64,000 nt of DNA from a virus. A program made the position numbers and the translations under genes. Location: positions 1-64,000 of the IMG/VR virus record IMGVR_UViG_3300047284_000516, one strand, 5' to 3'. Positions 17,315-37,232 of the stretch are shown here, in pieces. Under the pieces are notes generated by a model, which saw only the letters and a list, made by a program, of their open reading frames with translations, searched no databases and was not told the origin of the DNA. Each line of letters begins with the position of its first letter. The first letter of the stretch is position 1.

Positions 17315-18356
17315 TGTTCACTTTGGAGCACGTAATGATAGTGTACACTTCTCAAAATTTTTCGAGAAGTTCTATCTAGATATATTCTTTCCCTATCTCG
17401 ACAAACATAAGATCACTACTATCTTTCAATTGGGAGATGTGTTTGATCGTCGCAAATACATCAACTTTGCATCTCTCCATGCATGTCGACAGTATTTTTT
17501 TGAACAGGTACAATCTCGCGGCATCGATACCTACATTTTAGCTGGGAATCATGATGTGTTCTATAAAAATACCAACGATGTAAACTCGTTAGAACTCCTT
17601 ACAAAGGAATACGATCGGGTTAAAATCATTGCATCACGCCCAAAGGAGGTGGAATTAGCCAACAACTCTTTCCTTTTTGTCCCCTGGATATGCGAAGATA
17701 ATTACGATCAGACGATCAGAACTTTAAAAACAACGCAGTCACCTGTAGTTTTAGGTCATCTGGAGCTAGCAGGATTTGAGATGACCAAGGGTCATATGAT
17801 TGAAGAAGGCATGGATCCTTCGCTGTTCTGTAGATTTGAGCATGTGTTTTCTGGACACTATCATCACAGATCATCAGCATACAACATAACATATGTGGGT
17901 ACACCATATGAAATAACATGGTCTGATTATGGTGATCAAAAAGGCTTCCATATCTTTGATACCGATACCAGAGAAGCAACCTTCATTACAAATCCGTTTT
18001 CTATATTCAAGAAGTTGTATTATAATGATAAGGATAAGGGCTCCGACTACATTGCATCAATAGGACTGGAGAACTATGTGGGTTGCTATGCAAAAGTTAT
18101 CGTTAAGGAACGTACAAATCAGTTCATGTTGGAAAGCTTAATTGATCAAATGGAGAAGATTGGTGTTGTTGATCTTCAGGTTGTCGAGGAGACAGCGTTT
18201 AGTGATAATTTAACTGAAGAGCAGATCATTAATGAAGCAGAGGATACGTTAACCATTCTTACAAAGTATACCGATCAGCTGGATGTTGGGGTGGACAATA
18301 AAAAACTGCAAGCATTGCTTACAGACCTTTATAATGAAGCGTTGAGTATTGAATGA
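17286..18356 (+). CDS. gp47: Recombination endonuclease subunit gp47 (Mre11/SbcD-like)
   Basis: GDVHFG, GDVFD, GNHD, SGHYH metallophosphoesterase motifs. Confidence 0.95.
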   Translation: MIMKIAILGDVHFGARNDSVHFSKFFEKFYLDIFFPYLDKHKITTIFQLGDVFDRRKYINFASLHACRQYFFEQVQSRGIDTYILAGNHDVFYKNTNDVNSLELLTKEYDRVKIIASRPKEVELANNSFLFVPWICEDNYDQTIRTLKTTQSPVVLGHLELAGFEMTKGHMIEEGMDPSLFCRFEHVFSGHYHHRSSAYNITYVGTPYEITWSDYGDQKGFHIFDTDTREATFITNPFSIFKKLYYNDKDKGSDYIASIGLENYVGCYAKVIVKERTNQFMLESLIDQMEKIGVVDLQVVEETAFSDNLTEEQIINEAEDTLTILTKYTDQLDVGVDNKKLQALLTDLYNEALSIE

Positions 18357-20071
18357 TTACATTTAACACCATCAAGTGGAAGAATTTTCTCTCGACGGGC
18401 AATGCTTTTACGGAAATAAATTTAAATTCACATCGAACATCATTAATTGTTGGTAATAATGGAGCAGGTAAGTCCACTATTTTAGATGCTTTGTGCTTTG
18501 CCCTATATGGTAAACCGTTTAGAAAGATTAACAAACCACAACTCCTCAATTCCATCAATGGAAAAGAATGTGTGGTTGAAATTGAATTTAGTGCTCACAA
18601 TAAAACATTTAAGGTTGTTCGTGGAATAAAGCCCAATATATTCAAGATCTTCCAGAATGGGGAAGTTATTAATCAACATGCTGATATGAAAGATTATCAA
18701 GAGTATTTGGAAAAGCAAGTACTGAAGATGAATTTCAAATCGTTTTCACAAATTGTGATTCTTGGAAGTGCATCCTTCGTTCCATTTATGCAGTTGTCTG
18801 CTGCCAATCGTAGAGAGATTATCGAAGATCTTTTGGATATTCAAATCTTTACTACAATGAATATTCTATTGAAGGAAAAGCTATCCCTTCACAAGGAACA
18901 TCTAACGAGTCTAGAATATAAGATTAAAAATCTCGAAGATCAAATAGAGATTGAAAAAAGGCATAACGACGATATTAAGGAATCAAAGGATGCCTCGATT
19001 AGTCAGAAGCAAAAGCAGATAGGGGATTTGCTAGCAGATAATCAGCTACTTTCAACTAAGGTTCAGGAGTTAATTGATCAGGTCAATCAATACAATCAGC
19101 AGCTCACACAAGAGACAGAAGCTGAAGATAAGCTAGACAAGTATGATAAAATGCATAGGACATGCATCACCAAATATACGCACCTCAAAAAAGAATTGAC
19201 GTTCTTTGAGGAGCATGATCAGTGTCCTTCGTGCAAGCAACCTATTCTCTCTGCATACAAAGATACTATTTTAGAAAACGATCGGGAGCAATTGAAGCAG
19301 TATGCTGAGGCAAAGCAAAAGCTGGAGCAGAAAAAGGCTAAAGTGGAGCAGCTAATTGATAGTTTTGCAGCCTTGCATAAGAAAATCAATCATCTACAGC
19401 AACAGATAGCTGACTATAATAACAAATCAACTCTCAACAATCGAATGATCGATATGATTAATAAGGATATCGAATCGTTAAAAGTTAACGAAGACCATCA
19501 TCAAAAAAATCAAAAGACAATAAAGGCACTACAAATTCAGCTTCGCAGTGTTGGAAATGAACGAGAGGATGCAGGAGAGCACAAGCGTATGCTTGATCTA
19601 GCTGCTACACTTCTCAGAGATGGTGGTATAAAGACTAAAATTATTAAGCAATATGTTCCAATTATCAATCAGTTGATTAATAAGTATCTAACATCAATGG
19701 ATTTCTTTGTCAATTTTGAATTGGATGAGAATTTCAATGAAACAATTAAGTCCAGATTTAGAGATGATTTTAGTTATGAGTCTTTTTCAGAGGGGGAAAA
19801 ATCAAGATTGGATCTAGCATTGCTGTTTACTTGGAGAGCAATTGCAAAGATGAGAAACTCGGCGAGTACCAATCTTCTAATATTGGATGAGGTATTTGAT
19901 GGTTCGTTGGATGGAACCGGTAATGATGAACTCTTGAAGATTTTAGACAGTCTGTCTCATGGTAACAACGTATTTGTTATCTCTCATAGAACCGATGCAA
20001 TGTTGGATAAGTTTGAGAGAGTTCTCAAGTTTGAAAAGCATAAAAATTTCTCTAGGATTGTTGAAGCATGA
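18353..20071 (+). CDS. gp46: Recombination ATPase gp46 (Rad50/SbcC-like)
   Basis: GNNGAGKST, CPSC zinc hook, FSEGE signature, LILDEVFD. Confidence 0.96.
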   Translation: MITFNTIKWKNFLSTGNAFTEINLNSHRTSLIVGNNGAGKSTILDALCFALYGKPFRKINKPQLLNSINGKECVVEIEFSAHNKTFKVVRGIKPNIFKIFQNGEVINQHADMKDYQEYLEKQVLKMNFKSFSQIVILGSASFVPFMQLSAANRREIIEDLLDIQIFTTMNILLKEKLSLHKEHLTSLEYKIKNLEDQIEIEKRHNDDIKESKDASISQKQKQIGDLLADNQLLSTKVQELIDQVNQYNQQLTQETEAEDKLDKYDKMHRTCITKYTHLKKELTFFEEHDQCPSCKQPILSAYKDTILENDREQLKQYAEAKQKLEQKKAKVEQLIDSFAALHKKINHLQQQIADYNNKSTLNNRMIDMINKDIESLKVNEDHHQKNQKTIKALQIQLRSVGNEREDAGEHKRMLDLAATLLRDGGIKTKIIKQYVPIINQLINKYLTSMDFFVNFELDENFNETIKSRFRDDFSYESFSEGEKSRLDLALLFTWRAIAKMRNSASTNLLILDEVFDGSLDGTGNDELLKILDSLSHGNNVFVISHRTDAMLDKFERVLKFEKHKNFSRIVEA

Positions 20072-20735: not shown

Positions 20736-21584
20736 ATGGCTAAACTAAAAGTATCAGAGTTGTTTTACTCTTTGCAGGGCGAGGGAAGATATATGGGTAT
20801 CCCCTCTATCTTCCTCAGAACATATGGATGCAACTTCACGTGCTCTGGATTTGGTATGGGTCTTGGAGAGAAAAGTGAAGAGCGATTGCAAATTGTAGCA
20901 GAAAATTATAAATCATATAAAGATTTACCACTTGTTCATACTGGCTGTGACAGCTATGCTTCATGGGATCCAAGGTTCAAACATCTATCACCAATGTTGG
21001 AAACTTCTGCAGTAGTGGATAGTATTAAGCAGATACTTCCTGGTAATCGTTGGGGAGACGTTCATTTGGTGATTACTGGTGGCGAGCCTCTTTTAGGTTG
21101 GCAACGCTCATATCCTGAGCTTTTGGATGACCCGAGAAACAAAGATCTACAAGAGATCACATTTGAGACGAACGGTTCACAATATCTTACACCAGAATTT
21201 GAGAAGTATCTTTTCGAAGAATGGACTCGCCACGGTAGAGATTACCAGAAGTTGACATTCTCCGTATCTCCTAAACTATCTGTATCAGGGGAACGGTGGG
21301 AGGATGCTATCAAGCCAGAAGTTATTAAACAGTATGAGACGGTTGGATACACATACTTGAAGTTTGTTGTAGCTAGTAAGTATGATGTATCTGAAGCGGA
21401 AAATGCAGTGAATGAATATCGCAAAGTTGGCTTTGGTGGTCCAGTTTATCTCATGCCCTGCGGTGGCACTGAGCAACTTTATGAACTCAATAAAACACAA
21501 GTAGCTGAACATGCAATGAAGTTGGGATGGCGATATTCCGATAGACTACAGATTCCACTCTTTAAAAATGCATGGGGTACATGA
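20736..21584 (+). CDS. queE: 7-carboxy-7-deazaguanine synthase QueE (radical SAM)
   Basis: ELFYSLQGEG, FLRTYGCNFTC...GCDS, VITGGEPLL, FETNG, SVSPKL, RLQIPLF. Confidence 0.9.
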   Translation: MAKLKVSELFYSLQGEGRYMGIPSIFLRTYGCNFTCSGFGMGLGEKSEERLQIVAENYKSYKDLPLVHTGCDSYASWDPRFKHLSPMLETSAVVDSIKQILPGNRWGDVHLVITGGEPLLGWQRSYPELLDDPRNKDLQEITFETNGSQYLTPEFEKYLFEEWTRHGRDYQKLTFSVSPKLSVSGERWEDAIKPEVIKQYETVGYTYLKFVVASKYDVSEAENAVNEYRKVGFGGPVYLMPCGGTEQLYELNKTQVAEHAMKLGWRYSDRLQIPLFKNAWGT

Positions 21585-22018
21585 TGGCATACAAATATTC
21601 ATTTCATGACTATAGTAATGATATTTTAAATCTTTACAGAAAGATTGTGGACTCTGGAACAAAATACGATTTGGTGGTTGGGGTTGCCCGAGGAGGCGTT
21701 ATTCCAGCAGTGCATTTATCCCATCTTCTTGAGGTTCCATATGCTACTCTTCAGTGGTCTACAGCAAAGGATCGGGTACAGGAGAGGAGTAATCCGCATA
21801 TTATGTGTGCTAAAGGTCCTGTTCTGATTGTCGATGATATTGTAGATGATGGTGGCACAATGAGAGGTATTATGGAGTCATATCCCCAATGTGATACCGC
21901 TTCTTTGTTACTGAATGTAACCAATAGATATAATGTGGTTCCGACATTCACATCATGGAGTTTTAGTAGAGAGGATGTTCCTCAATGGATTGATTTTTGG
22001 TGGGAGACTATTGCATGA
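21572..22018 (+). CDS. Type I purine phosphoribosyltransferase (Gpt-like)
   Basis: VGVARGGVIPA, PRPP-binding loop VLIVDDIVDDGGT, C-terminal WIDFWWE; true start may be one of the next ATGs. Confidence 0.85.
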   Translation: MGYMMAYKYSFHDYSNDILNLYRKIVDSGTKYDLVVGVARGGVIPAVHLSHLLEVPYATLQWSTAKDRVQERSNPHIMCAKGPVLIVDDIVDDGGTMRGIMESYPQCDTASLLLNVTNRYNVVPTFTSWSFSREDVPQWIDFWWETIA

Positions 22019-22521
22019 CAACAAAAGTAACAAGGCATTACAAGTACGTTTCAACAAAAGAATATCATGACGCATTTCCATGTGCATATAGGCAGTGGAG
22101 AGCGGATAGTCATTGCAACTTGATTCATGGATATAGTTTTTCCATGAAGTTCTTTTTTGGTACGGATGATTTGGATGTGCGTAACTGGGCAGCAGATTAT
22201 GGGGGTCTAAAGGAGTTGAAAAAGATCCTTGAGGATCAGTTTGATCATACCCTTTTAGTATCGGAAGATGATCCAGAGCTCGAGACATACAAATTATTGC
22301 AGCAAAAGAATATGGCAAAGCTAACAATTCTTCCAAAGCTCGGATGCGAGGGTCTAGCAGATATGCTATACAAATATGTTAATGGTGTATACATTCCAGA
22401 TATGTGGGGTCCGGGTGAAGCAGAGCGTCTCTGGTGCTTCAGAGTAGAGGTTAGAGAGACGCAGACCAATATGGCTTTCAGACAGGGTCATAGAGAATGG
22501 GGGGAAAACCTTCTTGATTGA
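22015..22521 (+). CDS. queD: 6-carboxy-5,6,7,8-tetrahydropterin synthase QueD
   Basis: SHCNLIHGY, DYGGLK, FDHTLL, EVRET; context with queE and folE. Confidence 0.88.
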   Translation: MTTKVTRHYKYVSTKEYHDAFPCAYRQWRADSHCNLIHGYSFSMKFFFGTDDLDVRNWAADYGGLKELKKILEDQFDHTLLVSEDDPELETYKLLQQKNMAKLTILPKLGCEGLADMLYKYVNGVYIPDMWGPGEAERLWCFRVEVRETQTNMAFRQGHREWGENLLD

Positions 22522-23197
22522 TTGTAAGGCGTTTATGATTGTTGTAAAAGACAATCACGTCTCGCAATTCTATTCAAAGGTATGTATTCCTTCTTGGGAG
22601 AACAGGGGTGTGGATGTGCAGCTGTGGCAGGCCTCTACACCCCTTACTATAGACAAACGTCTTAGATTTGCTCCCATGACTACAATCAAGTACAGATCAC
22701 TTGGTATATCAAAAGAACTCACACCCACAGAACGGGCAGTATGGTCAAGCCACTTTAGAATGTGGGAACACTGCATTAATATCAATCAACCAATACTCGT
22801 ATTAGAGCATGATAGTTTTTGCATCAACATCGATCATTTAACCATACAACCACAAGCGTTTGTAACATATGATAAGGGAGCAATGGGCTGCTATATCATA
22901 CGACCGGAGTTTGCTAGGGTGTTAGTTGAGGATGCTATCAAGATTAGAATAGATTGTGGACCACTGGGATATGTAAAGTGGCGATCAGAAATACACAAAA
23001 TACCGATTATTACAGCCGAACACCCCTCATACAAAATGGTTTCGAACCAAGTATATTGTCCAGACTATGGACGTACTGTTGATCACTACACGGGAACAGA
23101 CGCTAAGAATCATATGCATCGATTCAATAAATTTGGATATCTTTTTGTAGATAGAAAAGGAAATGTTGACCTTAACCGAGTGATTGAGGTATTATGA
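22514..23197 (+). CDS. Glycosyltransferase family 25-like protein
   Basis: TERAVWSSHFRMWEHC...PILVLEHDS and CYII resemble the GT25 E-x-G-C-x-x-S-H...LILEDD pattern. Confidence 0.6.
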   Translation: MIDCKAFMIVVKDNHVSQFYSKVCIPSWENRGVDVQLWQASTPLTIDKRLRFAPMTTIKYRSLGISKELTPTERAVWSSHFRMWEHCININQPILVLEHDSFCINIDHLTIQPQAFVTYDKGAMGCYIIRPEFARVLVEDAIKIRIDCGPLGYVKWRSEIHKIPIITAEHPSYKMVSNQVYCPDYGRTVDHYTGTDAKNHMHRFNKFGYLFVDRKGNVDLNRVIEVL

Positions 23198-23218: not shown

Positions 23219-23902
23219 ATGGAAAAACACTTGTCGGAAGTAATTAGAGATCGTCTCAAGCAAAACAATAAGAGATACTTTGCTAGCGACAATATTTCTG
23301 ATTATATCACTGAAGATGAACAGAAGCAATTGGTTGAGGAGCTAACAGTAAAGTTTGAAGGGGTATTAGACTCGTTGATTATCGATAGAGAGAATGATCC
23401 CAATAGTCACGGCACTGCAAAGCGTCTCGCTAAAATGTATGTCTATGAACTAATGGAGGGTCGTTATTCTCCAATGCCTGATGTTACAGCGTTTCCAAAT
23501 CAAGGAGCGGATCGCTTTGAGGGAATGCTGGTAGTGAGGGCAGAGCTTGTGTCTATGTGTAGCCATCACCATCAGCCAGTTAAGGGGGTAGCAATTATCG
23601 GTATCATTCCTACAGGAGAAGTGATTGGCCTGTCCAAGTATGCGAGGATTGCTCAGTGGTGTGCTCGTAGAGGAACACTGCAAGAAGAGCTTGCCAATCA
23701 GATTGCTAAAGAAATTATGAATGCAACGGATACAGAGAATGTGGCTGTCCACTTAGACATGATTCATGGGTGTATGGAGAACCGAGGAGTGATGGCTCAT
23801 TCTAGCCAGACTCAAGCTACTGTGGTTCATGGGTTGTTTCACAACGATTCGGTCAAGGCTGAGTTTTTATCTCACGTCGATCGGCAGCTTTTAAGACGAT
23901 AA
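23219..23902 (+). CDS. folE: GTP cyclohydrolase I FolE
   Basis: SMCSHHHQP, IGLSKYARI, LQEEL, HGCMENRG. Confidence 0.95.
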   Translation: MEKHLSEVIRDRLKQNNKRYFASDNISDYITEDEQKQLVEELTVKFEGVLDSLIIDRENDPNSHGTAKRLAKMYVYELMEGRYSPMPDVTAFPNQGADRFEGMLVVRAELVSMCSHHHQPVKGVAIIGIIPTGEVIGLSKYARIAQWCARRGTLQEELANQIAKEIMNATDTENVAVHLDMIHGCMENRGVMAHSSQTQATVVHGLFHNDSVKAEFLSHVDRQLLRR

Positions 23903-24485
23903 AGGAGCCATCCTCGCATGAGCTTATCATTTTTTTCATTTCGTAATCGGATAGTTGATAAGCTCTTGCTGCAGCTCTTAATGAATAAAAATAGCCATTA
24001 GGTGTTTTGACGTGGTTGGAATGTGGTCTGTTTTTAAGGTATTTTTCTTTTGATTCTTTTCTAAACATTGGATTGTGTTCTGTCATTCTTTTCTTTACTA
24101 TTTGTTTAACCTTTTCAGAAGCAAAAATATTATCCTTACCTTTTTTATATGTCCCTTTGCGTTTTCTTGTTTGAACACCTTTAAAATGGCTTTCTTTGCT
24201 CCAGCCCGGAGGAGGAACATGAAAGGATTTATCAAATAATTTATAAGCCCACATCATTTTGTGTTTATTTTGGCCTTCAGTAAATTTTATAAGTAAAAGA
24301 TGTGCTAGTTTGTGTTCTCGGAATGTTAACAGTACGATATTTTCTTCATCGTCGTTGCCACCCAGTGACCTTGGAATTATGTGGTGGAATTGCTGGTCGT
24401 CACCTTTAACTTTAACACGTCGTTGACTTTTAGCTCTTTCTATTAGAAGATTGTAGTGTTTTAGATATTTGTTTGTTGTGAACAT
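23853..24485 (-). mobile_element. Free-standing HNH homing endonuclease
   Basis: HHIIPRSLGGNDDEENIVLLTFREHKLAHLLL; only long credible minus-strand gene; own TATAAATA upstream; start 24485 or 24500. Confidence 0.85.
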
Positions 24486-24516
24486 AATGGCTGCATCCAA
24501 AAGGTTGTATGTAAAC

Positions 24517-24539: not shown

Positions 24540-24899
24540 ATGCAAATCGCTAACAAAAAATTTATTTGGGTTACGTTTCAACGAGAAGGTATACACAACT
24601 ATCCTATGGCTCCAGAGGGAGTGGAGTTTCTTAAATACCCACATCGTCATATATTTCATTTCAGAGTAGAACTGGAAGTATTTCATGATGATCGTGATGT
24701 GGAGTTTATTTTATTTAAACGAGAATTGGAAGCCATGTTTAATCAAAAGGGCATGCAGTTTGACTTTAAATCATGTGAAATGCTAGCAGATGATATCGCC
24801 AAGTATGTAAAGGAGCATTATCCTAATCGGGATTTAGTTGTCGAAGTCAGTGAAGATGGGGAAAATGGATGTCGTAACTACTATCAAGGAGTACAGTGA
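24540..24899 (+). CDS. Second QueD-like T-fold protein, probable DpdL-type 7-carboxy-7-deazaguanine decarboxylase
   Basis: GIHNYP, PHRHIFHF (HxH metal motif), DRDVEFI, SCEMLA, EVSEDGENG; adjacent to the transglycosylase. Confidence 0.6.
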   Translation: MQIANKKFIWVTFQREGIHNYPMAPEGVEFLKYPHRHIFHFRVELEVFHDDRDVEFILFKRELEAMFNQKGMQFDFKSCEMLADDIAKYVKEHYPNRDLVVEVSEDGENGCRNYYQGVQ

Positions 24900-25741
24900 T
24901 GGCTTCGCCAATTAATTTCTGTCATATCGCACCTATTCCTCATTTGAAGGATTTTGTATCAACGAACAATGTTCATCTTACTCTTGCTCATTTAGTAGAA
25001 ACCAGTGATGAATATGCAGATTTCTATCATAACCGAAAGTCTGGCCAGGTTATTATGGATAATAGTGCATTTGAAATGTACAAGCAAGGTCGACCAATGT
25101 ATGATCCAAGTAAGCTGATTGATATGGCCCGAAGGTGTCGAGCAGATTATATTGTTATGTCAGATTATCCGGGAGAGTCTTGGCTAAAGACTAAGCACGC
25201 AGCTCAAGAATTAATTCCTCAGATCAAACAAGCTGGATTCAAGACATTCTATGTTCCTCAAAGTGAGCCAGGGCATCTCGAAGGGTACATTGCTTCTTTA
25301 GTCTGGGCGTTAGAAGATGGTGATGTGGATATGATTGGTCTTTCAATTCTCGGTGTACCTATGGCTATGGGAATCAAGCAGGATCACAACAAAGCATATT
25401 TTGCTCAAAGATTCCTCAGTCGTTGGCGATTGTTTCAGATTCTTGATCAGCGTGGGTATCTCTCACACACTGAAAGAGCAACTAAGCGCTTTCATTGCCT
25501 TGGAATGCAGGATGGACCCAATGAGATCTTGCTGCTGAAGCCATGGGCTCAGCACATCTACTCTTGGGATTCTAGTGCTGCTGTATGGGCAGGATTGAAT
25601 TATATTAAGTTTGATAGTTCACCTACGGGCTTGATGCATGGAAAGTATGAAGCGGAGGTTGATTTTAACTTCAAAGCAAGTCCAGCAACCATTAAACATG
25701 TGATGCGTAACATTAATTACATTAACAGTCTATGCGCATAA
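24896..25741 (+). CDS. TGT-fold guanine transglycosylase (DpdA-like, possibly DpdA3 type)
   Basis: IMDNSAFE (cf. DSGxF), MSDYP, FYVPQ, RFHCLG and YSWDSS occur in the order of TGT/DpdA catalytic motifs. Confidence 0.7.
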   Translation: MMASPINFCHIAPIPHLKDFVSTNNVHLTLAHLVETSDEYADFYHNRKSGQVIMDNSAFEMYKQGRPMYDPSKLIDMARRCRADYIVMSDYPGESWLKTKHAAQELIPQIKQAGFKTFYVPQSEPGHLEGYIASLVWALEDGDVDMIGLSILGVPMAMGIKQDHNKAYFAQRFLSRWRLFQILDQRGYLSHTERATKRFHCLGMQDGPNEILLLKPWAQHIYSWDSSAAVWAGLNYIKFDSSPTGLMHGKYEAEVDFNFKASPATIKHVMRNINYINSLCA

Positions 25742-26292
25742 TTGCTCTCTCCGGTCCCAAAGGTTCTGGGAAAGATACTATTGGTCGTCTACTAATGGAC
25801 ATGTATCCCGGTACACGAACGGTGGCATTTGCTGACCCCATTAAGAAGAAGATCCAGCAGTTTTTTGAACTCAATAGTGATGATCAAGAACAGTATGATT
25901 TGTTTAAGCGTACACGAATCTCATATCAGCTGCCAGGTTACCTAACACACACTATTGAAGGTAGACATCTAGTACGGGAGATTGGTATGCTGATGAGATC
26001 ATATGATCCAGATCAGTTTACAACATATGTGCGAGCCCAGATCATGCAATATCCAGATACATTATGGGTTATCACAGATCTACGGTTTGATAATGAGATT
26101 GCAATGCTTACGGAAATGAATGCAAAGTTTGTAAGAGTGATTCGTAAGCATTACGAATATGATGGCCATATAACGGAACAGCCTATACTATCGCAAGATA
26201 ATTGTGATTATATTATTAACAATAACTCAAACATTGAAGCAATGAAATTTCAGCTTCGTGAGATGGTTGAGTCCTTTTGGGAGACAGAATGA
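25732..26292 (+). CDS. Deoxynucleoside monophosphate kinase (T4 gp1-like)
   Basis: SGPKGSGKDT P-loop, FADPIK, ITDLRFDNE, HITE. Confidence 0.88.
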   Translation: MRIIALSGPKGSGKDTIGRLLMDMYPGTRTVAFADPIKKKIQQFFELNSDDQEQYDLFKRTRISYQLPGYLTHTIEGRHLVREIGMLMRSYDPDQFTTYVRAQIMQYPDTLWVITDLRFDNEIAMLTEMNAKFVRVIRKHYEYDGHITEQPILSQDNCDYIINNNSNIEAMKFQLREMVESFWETE

Positions 26293-26792
26293 AACATATT
26301 TTAGGACCTAATTCACGAAGCTCGCTGACAAATGTGGCAAGCGGTGACTCACAGCCCAATGCTGTAGATCTTCGTCTTAGCAAAGTGTTCCAAATGAAGA
26401 ATGCTATTTTTCAGCTAAGCAATGAGCAGAAACAACATAGAGGGATTGAGCATGAGATTGTACCGGATGAGGAGGGATACTTTAATCTTTCAGTTGGAAG
26501 CTATGAGGTCGTTATGGAAAACATTATCCGTGTGGGGGAGAATGAAGCAGGTTGGGTTATCACTCGCTCTACTCTCAATCGTAACGGTTGTTTCCTTACT
26601 AGCGGTCTCTACGATAGTGGTTATCATGGTGCTATGGCTGGTGTATTGCATGTTACAACCGGTCCAGCAAGAATTAAGCAAGGCACACGGATCGGACAGT
26701 ACCTGAGTTTTGAGGCAGAGTCTCTTAGCAGCTATGATGGGGATTATGGTATTAATAAACAGCATGATAAAAAATATGGAGAAGTTAAATGA
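26289..26792 (+). CDS. dUTPase / dCTP deaminase superfamily protein
   Basis: QPNAVDLRL, TRSTLNRNG, YDSGYHG, TRIGQ. Confidence 0.8.
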   Translation: MKHILGPNSRSSLTNVASGDSQPNAVDLRLSKVFQMKNAIFQLSNEQKQHRGIEHEIVPDEEGYFNLSVGSYEVVMENIIRVGENEAGWVITRSTLNRNGCFLTSGLYDSGYHGAMAGVLHVTTGPARIKQGTRIGQYLSFEAESLSSYDGDYGINKQHDKKYGEVK

Positions 26793-27640
26793 GTTTTGAA
26801 ATTAAGATCTCGCTAGAGGAACTACAGAAACGTAAGTTGTTTGTTGCAACCCCAATGTATGGTGGCCAATGTGCTGGAATGTATGCTCGCTCCATTGCCG
26901 ATCTTTCTGCTACATGCGCAAAGAATGGTATTCAGCTGCAGCTGTATTTTTTGTTCAATGAGTCTTTGATTACAAGAGCACGTAACTATTGTGTTGATGA
27001 ATTTTTGCGTAGCGAAGCTACGCATATGATGTTCATTGATAGTGATATTGGATTTAACCCACAAGACGTATTGGCTCTACTTGCATTGCAAGATGATGAG
27101 AGCCCATATGATGTGATTGGTGGACCATATCCTAAGAAATGTATTTCCTGGGAAAAGATCAAACAAGCGGTGGATAAAGGTGTAGCCGATGAGAACCCCA
27201 ATGTCCTGGAGCGCTTTGTGGGAGACTATGTGTTTAATCCTAAGTCTGATCAGCGTGAGATTCCAATTGGGAAGCCAGTGGAAGTTCGTGAACTTGGTAC
27301 AGGTTTTATGATGATCCGTCGATCTGCATTTGAAAAATACCGTGAGGCATTTCCTCACCTTAGCTATAAGCCTGACCATGTACGAACGGAACACTTTGAT
27401 GGTAGCCGCGAGATTCACGCATACTTTGATTGTATTATTGATCCGGAGAGCAAGCGTTACTTGTCCGAGGATTATATGTTCTGTTACAACATGGCTAAGA
27501 TCGGTGGCGGTGTATGGCTGTGCCCCTGGATGAAGATGAACCACGTGGGGTCCTATGTGTTTGGTGGTAGTCTGGCTGACTTAGCTTCTATTGGAGCATC
27601 TGCTACTGCTGATGTGAATAAAATCAAGAAGAAGGGTTAA
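26789..27640 (+). CDS. GT-A fold glycosyltransferase-like protein
   Basis: FVATPMYGG, NESLITRARN, MFIDSDIGF (DxD), GTGFMMIRR, YLSEDYMFC. Confidence 0.7.
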   Translation: MSFEIKISLEELQKRKLFVATPMYGGQCAGMYARSIADLSATCAKNGIQLQLYFLFNESLITRARNYCVDEFLRSEATHMMFIDSDIGFNPQDVLALLALQDDESPYDVIGGPYPKKCISWEKIKQAVDKGVADENPNVLERFVGDYVFNPKSDQREIPIGKPVEVRELGTGFMMIRRSAFEKYREAFPHLSYKPDHVRTEHFDGSREIHAYFDCIIDPESKRYLSEDYMFCYNMAKIGGGVWLCPWMKMNHVGSYVFGGSLADLASIGASATADVNKIKKKG

Positions 27641-27642
27641 TT

Positions 27643-28299
27643 ATGAAACTGAGTACGAGAACCATTCAGATTCTAAAAAATTTCTCGACCATCAACCAAT
27701 CTCTGCTGTTTAGGCAGGGTGATGTGTTGAGAACGACGACACCCAGTAAAACAATCATGGCAAAGGCAACAATTGCGGAGAATTTTGATACAGAGTTTGC
27801 CATCTATGACCTCTCACGTCTAATCAATACACTTTCTTTGTTTGGGGATCCTGAAATCCACCCACTCGATGGTTATCTGCAGATTTCTGAAGGATCACAG
27901 TGTGTAAAATATAATTACACCGATGTTGATTCTATTGTTACACCCTCAAAGGAGATTAAGCTGCCACAATGTGAGATTAATTTTCGTATGACGAGTGCCA
28001 ATCTTTCATCTGTCCTAAAGGGGATGAATGTTCTTGGTCTACCTGAACTGATGGTCGTCGGGGATGGGAAGAATATTTTCCTGTCTGCTGGTAATGTAAA
28101 GCAAAGTTCTGGTGATAACTACAAGATCAATGTTGGCGACACAGAGCACGAATTCAATATTGTCTTCCGTGCAGAGAATGTAAAGATGATGGCAGAGGAC
28201 TATGAAGTACAGATCTCGTCCAAAGGGATTGCTCATTTGAAAGCATCAGATGTAGAATACTGGATTGCAGCAGAGAGTAGTTCAACATTCTACAATTAA
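27643..28299 (+). CDS. gp45: Sliding clamp gp45
   Basis: MKLSTRTIQILKNFSTINQS, FAIYDL, EYWIAAE. Confidence 0.93.
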   Translation: MKLSTRTIQILKNFSTINQSLLFRQGDVLRTTTPSKTIMAKATIAENFDTEFAIYDLSRLINTLSLFGDPEIHPLDGYLQISEGSQCVKYNYTDVDSIVTPSKEIKLPQCEINFRMTSANLSSVLKGMNVLGLPELMVVGDGKNIFLSAGNVKQSSGDNYKINVGDTEHEFNIVFRAENVKMMAEDYEVQISSKGIAHLKASDVEYWIAAESSSTFYN

Positions 28300-36399: not shown

Positions 36400-37232
36400 A
36401 ATACGTAGCCTTTGTTTCTGGAATATCTCTCTCTGCTGTAGCTGCTTTTTATTCGGTCCTTGGTCTCACAAGTATCTTTGCAGGAGCATTTTGGGCAGTG
36501 GTGGTAATGGGAGCAACACTAGAAGTATCAAAAGTAGTGGCAACATCATGGCTGTTTCGTAACTGGTCAAAGGCATCTAAGTGGCTTAGAAATTATCTTA
36601 TGGGAGCAGTGATTGTTCTGTCCCTAATTACCTCTCTCGGTATCTTTGGGTTTCTCTCAAAGGCTCATAGCAATCAAACTATGTTGACGTCGGATCAGTA
36701 TGGACAGATACTGATTCTTGACGAGCAAATTCTCATAGCAAAGGACGATATTGAACGCACAAAGAAAGCACTTAGACAGTTAGATGTTAATGTGGAGCAA
36801 TTACAGACAAAGGGACCTGAGTTCGCTGATCAGGCAAATAAATTGCAGTTATCTCAGCGTCGGCAACAGACCGGTCTTGTTAACAATTTAAAGCAATCTC
36901 AATCCAGTTTGATAGATTTACAAAAGCAGCGTGCTTTGCTAAAAAGTGATGTAAAAGGTATAGAAGCTGAGGTTGGACCAATAAAATATATTGCAAGTTT
37001 TATTTACGGGGAAACAAGCCAAGATGTGTTGGAAAAGTCTGTAACATGGCTTATAATCATTATCATATTTGTCTTTGATCCTATGGCTCTTGCTTTGATC
37101 ATGATTTCCAATATGAAAACCACCAAAACATACTATAAACGAAAGACAGGTATTATTAATAAAGTTAAGAAAACGATAGCAAAGAAGAAGAATGTTGTTG
37201 AGGTAGGTAAAAATTCTATTATGAGGATGTAA
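36396..37232 (+). CDS. Multi-pass membrane protein with coiled coil
   Basis: Three N-terminal hydrophobic helices, [10 protein letters not shown], heptad region, [10 protein letters not shown]-terminal TM; start reassigned to MKYVAF. Confidence 0.7.

Follow-up and report, generated by a model that had tools for sequence, protein, structure and literature searches.

A DpdL and DpdA3 gene pair of a T4-like phage and its proposed part in replacing guanine by 7-deazaguanine before DNA replication

A QueD-like gene overlapping a compact gene of the tRNA-guanine transglycosylase (TGT) type raises the question of the substrate on which the second enzyme would act, finished DNA or a free nucleotide. 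Such a pair is situated at positions 24540 to 25741 of the DNA analysed here, a window of 64,000 nucleotides from the start of a 79,894-base IMG/VR viral contig (IMGVR_UViG_3300047284_000516), which is phage T4-like and was estimated to be about 45% complete. The two genes very probably represent DpdL and a DpdA3-family member of a 2'-deoxy-7-deazaguanine (dDG) module. They are proposed to be central to a module by which this T4-like phage would replace the guanine of its DNA with 7-deazaguanine. An exchange made before replication on a free deoxynucleotide, with dGMP as the likeliest substrate, is preferred to one made on finished DNA; a probability of roughly 55% is given to this reading. 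No close DNA relative of the window was found among 50,697 phage records.

The first gene (24540-24899) encodes a protein of 119 amino acids. As read in the original prediction, it is a QueD paralog with an H...HxH arrangement (H19, H35-R-H37) and without the catalytic Cys of QueD, the position of which is occupied by L31. The local sequence LKYPHRHIF fits LxxxHRHxF, the published DpdL signature that replaces the CxxxHGH of QueD (PMC10516641). An alignment of 15 DpdL homologues shows no variation at L31, H35, H37 or F39 and at least 90% conservation of R36, and comparison of these 15 sequences with 11 phage QueD proteins by hhalign (probability 84%, E 7.9e-6) places L31 on the QueD catalytic Cys. 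The protein shows 40% identity to CGPG_00067 of phage phiST, the founding DpdL (E 8e-24), and matches PHROG 17812; neither Pfam nor PHROGs gave it a functional name. The surroundings are also those of DpdL, with folE, queD, queE and dpdA3 present in the window and no QueC found. By homology and motif, the open reading frame (ORF) at 24540-24899 is identified as DpdL. Decarboxylation of 7-carboxy-7-deazaguanine (CDG) by DpdL was proposed by Cui et al. and could not be demonstrated (PMC10516641). In two other phages DpdL forms the C-terminal domain of a larger protein, namely gp176 of Bakedbeans (L005:1111-2262, 383 amino acids) and a protein of Chryseobacterium phage MA9V-3 (L088:3647-4528, 293 amino acids); the N-terminal parts of both matched neither Pfam nor the other module proteins.

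The second gene (24899-25741) had been described as a 281-residue protein carrying five motifs, and each of them is present: DNSAFE (residues 55-60), SDYP (89-92), VPQ (120-122), HCLG (200-203) and WDSS (224-227). They coincide with the best-conserved positions in the alignment of a large family, in which D55, N56, E60, D90, Q122, S150, H200, L202, G203, D225 and S227 are invariant or conserved in at least 90% of 66 representatives. A search of 5.8 billion proteins gave 1780 homologues at E<=1e-3, falling into 429 clusters at 50% identity, so the ORF is not a product of chance. A search for fused forms of greater length, 493 to 2000 amino acids, found none, and searches of IMG/VR for distant family members (P0222, P0185 or alignment queries) yielded no loci or no usable conserved stretch.

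Assignment of the fold came from structure prediction. The AlphaFold2 model of the protein, built from the 66 representatives, has a mean confidence score (pLDDT) of 95.8 and consists of eight strand-helix units, and the top 50 Protein Data Bank (PDB) matches found with Foldseek are all TGT (E about 1e-7). Comparison with 48,161 chains by VIA-align ranked archaeosine TGT (ArcTGT, Z 17.7), Tgt (16.4), DpdA 7ui4 (16.4) and Cap10 (15.4) as the four best, with generic triosephosphate isomerase-type barrels scoring 14.6 or lower in the same pass. The protein had no Pfam and no PHROG match, a profile search against PDB sequences gave chance matches only (E >= 0.4), and PF01702, the Pfam family of Tgt, matched neither this protein nor anything else on the contig. 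As had been predicted, there is no C-terminal zinc-binding domain: the protein ends at residue 281 in a helix and has no CxCxxC motif, which is present as CDCYTC in the E. coli Tgt used as control. The ORF at 24899-25741 is thus a TGT-fold barrel, a DpdA3 in the broad sense with a clade of its own, and by its lack of PF01702 and of the zinc site it is not, as judged from sequence, a tRNA Tgt of the Pfam type. The transglycosylase and T-fold assignments made in the original prediction stand, and the outcome it had named as a refutation, a fold other than the TGT barrel, did not occur.

Compared with Tgt and bacterial DpdA (PDB 1iq8, 3unt, 7ui4), the protein shares the (beta/alpha)8 barrel, and its putative catalytic Asp residues, like the Asp and Gln expected to read the base, appear to fall at matching strand ends, whereas it is about 100 to 300 residues shorter, lacks the zinc subdomain and PF01702, and has only 12-16% identity. 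D55, D90, Q122 and D225 are conserved in at least 90% of the family and lie at strand ends of the model. An hhalign register against E. coli Tgt pairs D90 with D143, Q122 with Q, HCLG with YLMG and D225 with D264, at a probability of 0.4% with a single-sequence template and without reaching D55. The alignment suggests that D55 and D225 may be the catalytic Asp pair and that recognition of the 2-amino-6-oxo face of the base may fall to D90 and Q122.

Sequence comparison puts the gene among the DpdA3 proteins, apart from Tgt and from DpdA of the DSGG type. Its alignment to phiST DpdA3 (CGPG_00065; 25% identity, E 1e-9) covers the full length, and a search with the family profile picks up CPT_0056, the DpdA3 of Campylobacter phage CP220, at E 6e-38. 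All-against-all BLAST joins the window clade, phiST/MA9V-3 and Bacillus phage BSP7, and gave no link of these DpdA3 clades to the DSGG-type DpdA of ACP17, nt-1, Moby and PA5oct or to Tgt. The family motif is D-N-[SG]-[AG/L]-F-E where TGT has D-S-G-G-[FY]-Q. The original prediction had taken DNS in place of DSG, together with the short length, as raising the possibility of a nucleotide substrate; neither holds as such a sign, DNS/DNG being simply the DpdA3 family signature. The sampled DSGG-type phage DpdAs are likewise without CxCxxC, and the missing zinc domain does not discriminate either. Acidic charge as a sign that DNA is not bound was rejected too, for although the median isoelectric point of the family is 5.8, equal acidity is found in E. 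coli Tgt and in phage DpdAs of the DSGG type. Phage DpdAs of the DSGG/nt-1 type have been reported to modify only about 0.1% of G.

What does bear on the substrate is the company the pair keeps. Linkage was determined in 80 related IMG/VR loci out of 418 confirmed relatives, on which the module genes were mapped by tblastn; the 80 loci form one clade with 50-57% identity and conserved synteny. In the window, a 7-kb insert between gp46 (18353-20071) and the sliding clamp gene gp45 (27643-28299) carries a deazaguanine cluster, preceded in the insert by a peptide deformylase gene, in the following order:

20736-21584, plus strand: queE, predicted CDG synthase (weak radical-SAM Pfam matches; by tblastn most related loci have a conserved homologue in the corresponding place)
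21572-22018, plus strand: purine-type phosphoribosyltransferase (PRTase), accessory, proposed to act in guanine salvage (PF00156, E 2e-13)
21997-22521, plus strand: queD, 6-carboxytetrahydropterin (CPH4) synthase (PF01242, E 2e-14; C40 and H44 invariant in its homologue alignment)
22514-23197: GT25-like gene, between queD and folE
23219-23902, plus strand: folE, GTP cyclohydrolase I (PF01227, E 7.8e-37)
23853-24500, minus strand: HNH homing endonuclease, antisense between folE and dpdL, with a 50-nt overlap with the folE 3' end
24540-24899, plus strand: dpdL, QueD-paralogous T-fold protein, proposed CDG decarboxylase (homology to phiST DpdL, LxxxHRHxF)
24899-25741, plus strand: dpdA3-like gene for a compact TGT-fold (beta/alpha)8 transglycosylase (alternative GTG start at 24896; fold, and homology to phiST and CP220)
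25732-26292, plus strand: T4 gp1-type deoxynucleoside monophosphate (dNMP) kinase, proposed 7-deaza-dGMP kinase (PF21448, PHROG 139)
26289-26792, plus strand: protein of the dCTP deaminase (DCD)/dUTPase fold, proposed dNTP (possibly dGTP) pyrophosphatase (PF22769, E 1.6e-13; AlphaFold2 and Foldseek)
26789-27640: GT-A-like gene, between the DCD-fold gene and gp45 (PHROG 1574, E 5e-64)

The four genes from dpdL to the DCD-fold gene overlap stop to start and are a translationally coupled run opened by the dpdL/dpdA3 pair. A Shine-Dalgarno sequence AGAGGTG, rated good, precedes the ATG of dpdL. At the dpdL/dpdA3 junction, cAAGGAGtacaGTGATGg, the overlap had originally been read as GTGA; the dpdL stop codon TGA does overlap the GTG at 24896, yet it also overlaps the ATG at 24899 (TGATG), and the latter is the likelier start of dpdA3, since AAGGAG is located 7 nt upstream of it, a suitable Shine-Dalgarno spacing, and a database entry (P0001) has 280 amino acids. 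Between dpdA3 and the kinase gene there is a 10-nt overlap (ATGcgcaTAA), and the kinase stop overlaps the start of the DCD-fold gene as ATGA at 26289.

The gene after dpdA3 is a kinase of the T4 gp1 type, with a PF21448 score of 68.4 bits (cut-off 27.1), a PHROG 139 match at E 6.5e-37 and 27-28% identity to the annotated gp1 of Aeromonas T4-like phages. This position is filled in all 80 loci, by a gp1-type kinase in 35 and by a DUF3310 gene in the other 45, and never by both; in these 45 loci the DUF3310 gene usually overlaps the dpdA3 stop. The DCD-fold gene comes after the kinase or DUF3310 gene in 79 loci, and dpdL is upstream in 77. In five homologues (P0123, P0124, P0137, P0143 and EVB91_073 of Rhizobium phage RHph_I1_18) DpdA3 and DUF3310 are fused into one protein. 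T4 gp1 also accepts dGMP. T7 gp1.7, which phosphorylates dTMP and dGMP (PMC11897194, PMC9339283), has DUF3310 as its conserved core (E 4.5e-23). The DUF3310 proteins of this slot measure about 80-145 amino acids, with a median of 103 (L014:1371-1652, L023:1788-2105 and 43 other loci). The short core standing alone in the place of the gp1 kinase may be a minimal nucleotide kinase, which would give a widespread phage domain of unknown function a function.

The DCD-fold protein was modelled with a pLDDT of 90.9, and the top Foldseek matches are dCTP deaminase and DCD-DUT, with a TM-score of about 0.7. V119 stands in the place of the catalytic E138 of E. coli Dcd, a position at which 30 homologues have no conserved Glu. 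A dCTP deaminase function was rejected, for although the fold is that of DCD the catalytic Glu is absent, which makes a dNTP pyrophosphatase the likelier function. This DCD-fold subfamily is present in exactly four of the 50,697 phage records, and these are the four with the window DpdA3 clade: Aeromonas phage Ahp1, Vibrio phages D479 and Bakedbeans and Rhizobium phage RHph_I1_18. In these cultured carriers the genes are annotated as hypothetical (all module genes in Ahp1, MT161459.1) or are mislabelled (as DUF3310-domain protein and dUTPase in RHph_I1_18). Ahp1 carries two gp1-type kinases, at 36691-37191 and 210755-211375 of MT161459.1, one canonical (E 3e-50) and one divergent and located beside dpdA3, and a second DCD/dUTPase is encoded elsewhere in Ahp1 and D479. 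The module kinase of Ahp1 and the DCD-fold enzymes of Ahp1 and D479 are extra paralogues and, judging from these gene inventories, appear to be dedicated to the module.

The same association recurs in unrelated phages with other enzymes. In phiST, DpdA3 is accompanied by a MazG pyrophosphatase, DpdL and an AAA_18 kinase; in MA9V-3 by a DCD-fold gene, a DpdL fusion and AAA_18; in BSP7 by a P-loop protein and DNA polymerase. In CP220 an HD phosphohydrolase-AAA_33 kinase fusion, DpdA3 and an AAA_28 kinase make up an island of three genes that lies between tail genes and apart from any Que gene. A MazG, DCD-fold or HD hydrolase is consequently found near DpdA3 in all of these except BSP7. In BSP7 (L087:258-5687) the DpdA3-like gene is coupled to the P-loop protein directly before the DNA polymerase, and QueC, QueD, QueE and FolE are also present; the arrangement of DpdA3 with a kinase is therefore not limited to the QueC-less dDG phages. 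DpdA loci of the DSGG type served as controls: in nt-1 and Moby the neighbours of DpdA are Que genes only, and in ACP17 and PA5oct there are glycosyltransferases and a PRTase and neither kinase nor hydrolase. Altogether at least five Pfam-distinct kinase families recur with DpdA3, two of which are unrelated to P-loop families. The link to the overlapping kinase gene, which the original prediction had drawn from the window, is strongly supported by this comparison, kinases being present in every lineage examined and even fused to DpdA3.

The closest known counterpart is the dDG system of phiST (Cui, Hutinet et al., Nucleic Acids Research 2023, PMC10516641), which has the same QueC-less FolE/QueD/QueE set with DpdL and a TGT-fold DpdA3 of about 260-280 amino acids, and in which, as in the window, a kinase and a dNTP pyrophosphatase belong to the same cluster. 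The two differ in that phiST DpdA3 has DNGAG and the window protein DNSAFE; at 25% identity, a database-scale tblastn from either clade misses the other. The phiST kinase is AAA_18 and its hydrolase MazG, while the window has a T4 gp1-type kinase (PF21448) and a DCD-fold hydrolase. Unlike phiST, the window phage is T4-like, carries the cluster between gp46 and gp45, and has in addition the PRTase and two glycosyltransferase-like genes. CPT_0056 of the Firehammervirus CP220, for which 100% 2'-deoxy-7-amido-7-deazaguanine (dADG) has been reported, belongs to the same DpdA3 family (24% identity over the full length; motifs DNSLFE, HLLG and LDTS) and is likewise flanked by nucleotide-type enzymes. 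CP220 differs by its HD-AAA_33 fusion and AAA_28 kinase, by the lack of adjacent DpdL or Que genes and by its final base, which is 7-amido-7-deazaguanine (ADG) and not 7-deazaguanine.

FolE, QueD and QueE convert GTP to CDG. From gene identities, fold, motif conservation, coupling and linkage we infer the further catalytic steps and the substrate level as follows. DpdL would decarboxylate CDG to the free base 7-deazaguanine. The DCD-fold enzyme, dead as a deaminase, would cleave dGTP to dGMP, which would feed the exchange and at the same time keep G out of the DNA. DpdA3 would act on this dGMP, its barrel swapping guanine for 7-deazaguanine by TGT-type chemistry via D55 and D225, so that 7-deaza-dGMP is formed and guanine set free. 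Phosphorylation of 7-deaza-dGMP would fall to the coupled gp1-type kinase, or to the DUF3310 (T7 gp1.7-type) protein in sister phages, and the host nucleoside diphosphate kinase and the phage polymerase would complete the route, with the optional PRTase recycling the released guanine towards GTP.

A hydrolase, a modifying enzyme and a dedicated dNMP kinase are the standard layout of pre-replicative pathways, and exchange at the dGMP level is the most economical account of the linkage. The proposed logic is identical to that of the T4 hydroxymethylcytosine (hmC) pathway (gp56 dCTPase, gp42 dCMP hydroxymethylase, gp1), to whose gp1 the window kinase is homologous, and to that of the Z-base pathway (DatZ, MazZ, PurZ): hydrolysis of a dNTP yields the dNMP and shuts out the canonical base, the dNMP is modified, and a kinase of its own phosphorylates it again. 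In the Z-base pathway the hydrolase slot is filled by MazZ and DatZ, as it is by MazG in phiST and HD in CP220 (PMC12783734, and the established biochemistry of these pathways). In contrast to both pathways, the step proposed here would be a TGT-fold base exchange instead of chemistry on the attached base. Exchange on the nucleotide would account for three published observations: DpdA3 phages show 100% replacement, with phiST DNA having no dG; expression of DpdA3 and DpdL in E. coli gave no dDG; and ADG in a nucleoside form was observed in cells infected with CP220 (PMC10516641). DNA fully substituted with dDG has also been reported for Vibriophage VP1. A modified dGTP or a hidden 2'-deoxyribosyltransferase had been floated in 2019 (PMC6884629), and the nucleotide-level reading revives this possibility, which was dropped in 2023.

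Several points weigh against exchange on dGMP. The TGT-fold enzymes characterised so far all take a polymer (tRNA or DNA) or, in the case of Cap10, a protein as substrate, and none is known to act on a mononucleotide. Known members of the DCD fold take pyrimidines, the dGTP specificity of the window enzyme being a proposal, and AAA_33 also includes polynucleotide kinases. The short DUF3310 proteins of about 100 amino acids are putative kinases only, and the activities of DpdL and DpdA3 are proposals for every member of both families. Adjacency in 80 loci of one clade could simply be inherited; the argument is based on the displacement of one kinase by another, on the fusions and on four other lineages. 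Finally, in the literature up to December 2025 every deazaguanine modification of DNA is taken to be post-replicative.

The latter is the published model, in which DpdA3 is a very efficient DNA-guanine transglycosylase working on finished DNA after replication, and its neighbours, the kinase and the DCD-fold gene, would supply nucleotides in general or answer some other need of these phages. DpdA3 does share its fold and, apparently, its Asp pair with DNA- and tRNA-acting relatives (DpdA 7ui4, Z 16.4 with 231 residues aligned), genes for gp1 and dUTPase-type proteins are common in T4-like phages anyway, and post-replicative exchange is the conclusion of the authors of PMC10516641, repeated in later papers. 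It leaves unexplained, however, the DpdA3-DUF3310 fusions, the recurrence of five kinase families and three hydrolase folds beside DpdA3 in unrelated phages, the CP220 island included, the extra paralogues in Ahp1 and D479, and the identical phyletic pattern of the DCD-fold subfamily, while the DSGG-type DpdA loci are without such kinase and hydrolase neighbours. There is also no precedent for 100% replacement by post-replicative exchange, and the heterologous test in E. coli failed. Exchange on finished DNA is considered less likely than exchange on dGMP, and is the strongest of the alternatives.

The PRTase could offer another way to the same end, in which 7-deazaguanine and phosphoribosyl pyrophosphate would yield 7-deaza-GMP, to be phosphorylated, reduced by ribonucleotide reductase and incorporated, leaving DpdA3 a side role in salvage or in proofreading of residual G. 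Its gene overlaps both queE and queD in the window and recurs in related loci, and a similar PRTase is encoded near queE in PA5oct, an unrelated DpdL-bearing jumbo phage (L091:7175-7609, 24% identity, E 1e-9). Against this, it is present in only 20 of the 40 related loci in which queE and folE occur together, and it was not annotated or seen in the examined stretches of phiST, MA9V-3, BSP7 and CP220, whereas DpdA3, kinase and hydrolase are near-universal and the slot kinases are dNMP kinases. This route is judged quite improbable. The PRTase, found in only half of the loci, is optional, and its most fitting role would be to return the released guanine to GTP, from which the pathway itself starts.

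That the module does not modify phage DNA and instead modifies tRNA or boosts host queuosine precursors, as DpdA-less Que clusters were read before 2023, is hardly tenable, given the lack of QueC and hence of the preQ0 and preQ1 needed for queuosine, the fully substituted DNA of phiST, of CP220 with the same DpdA3 family and of VP1 (full dDG), and a dpdA3 product without a Pfam TGT match, a zinc site or a tRNA-binding C-terminal domain.

QueC was found neither on the 79.9-kb contig, with its completeness of about 45%, nor in a relative that is 100% complete (G001, 222,825 bp), nor in the deposited genomes of Ahp1, RHph_I1_18 and Bakedbeans, the three of the four isolates that were searched. 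The queE gene is called from its position, the weak radical-SAM matches and the note of the earlier reader, and is to be taken as probable. Its cysteines are apparently arranged as C32-x3-C36-x34-C71 and not as the usual CxxxCxxC, and the Pfam radical-SAM match is correspondingly weak (E 0.0017, 20736-21000).

Two further gene types accompany the module. Homing endonucleases recur at its edges: besides the HNH gene of the window, one is situated in the equivalent place in D479 (L003:5568-6245), and another in CP220 (L097:2185-3909) is directly upstream of the HD-kinase/DpdA3 island. The cluster also has two glycosyltransferase-like genes, of which the GT-A-like one separates the DCD-fold gene from gp45 in most related loci. 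GT1-like genes occur in the DpdL loci of ACP17 and PA5oct; 7-deazaguanine has no obvious sugar acceptor.

The QueC-less set of FolE, QueD, QueE, DpdL and DpdA3 was already known as the dDG system; new is its linkage to kinase and hydrolase genes. The literature does not explain why substitution in DpdA3 phages is 100%, nor why DpdA3 and DpdL together are without effect in E. coli, and the linkage names candidates for the missing parts, namely a dedicated nucleotide kinase and a dNTP hydrolase. In its widest form the proposal is that DpdA3 would be the first TGT-fold enzyme to act on a free deoxynucleotide, a dGMP:7-deazaguanine transglycosylase and in function a nucleotide 2'-deoxyribosyltransferase, and that phiST-, CP220- and T4-like phages would replace G before replication by a three-slot module with non-homologous hydrolases and kinases; we hold the odds on this to be about even. 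If true, it would be a third kind of pre-replicative base replacement, after hmC/hydroxymethyluracil (hmU) and the Z base, and would extend TGT chemistry to mononucleotides. It would also provide an enzymatic route to 7-deaza-dGTP, a reagent for sequencing and PCR, a DCD-fold enzyme with purine dNTP specificity, and a role for DUF3310 proteins of about 100 amino acids as minimal nucleotide kinases. The module is common, with 418 pattern-matched IMG/VR stretches encoding a relative, and its genes are carried by four cultured phages.

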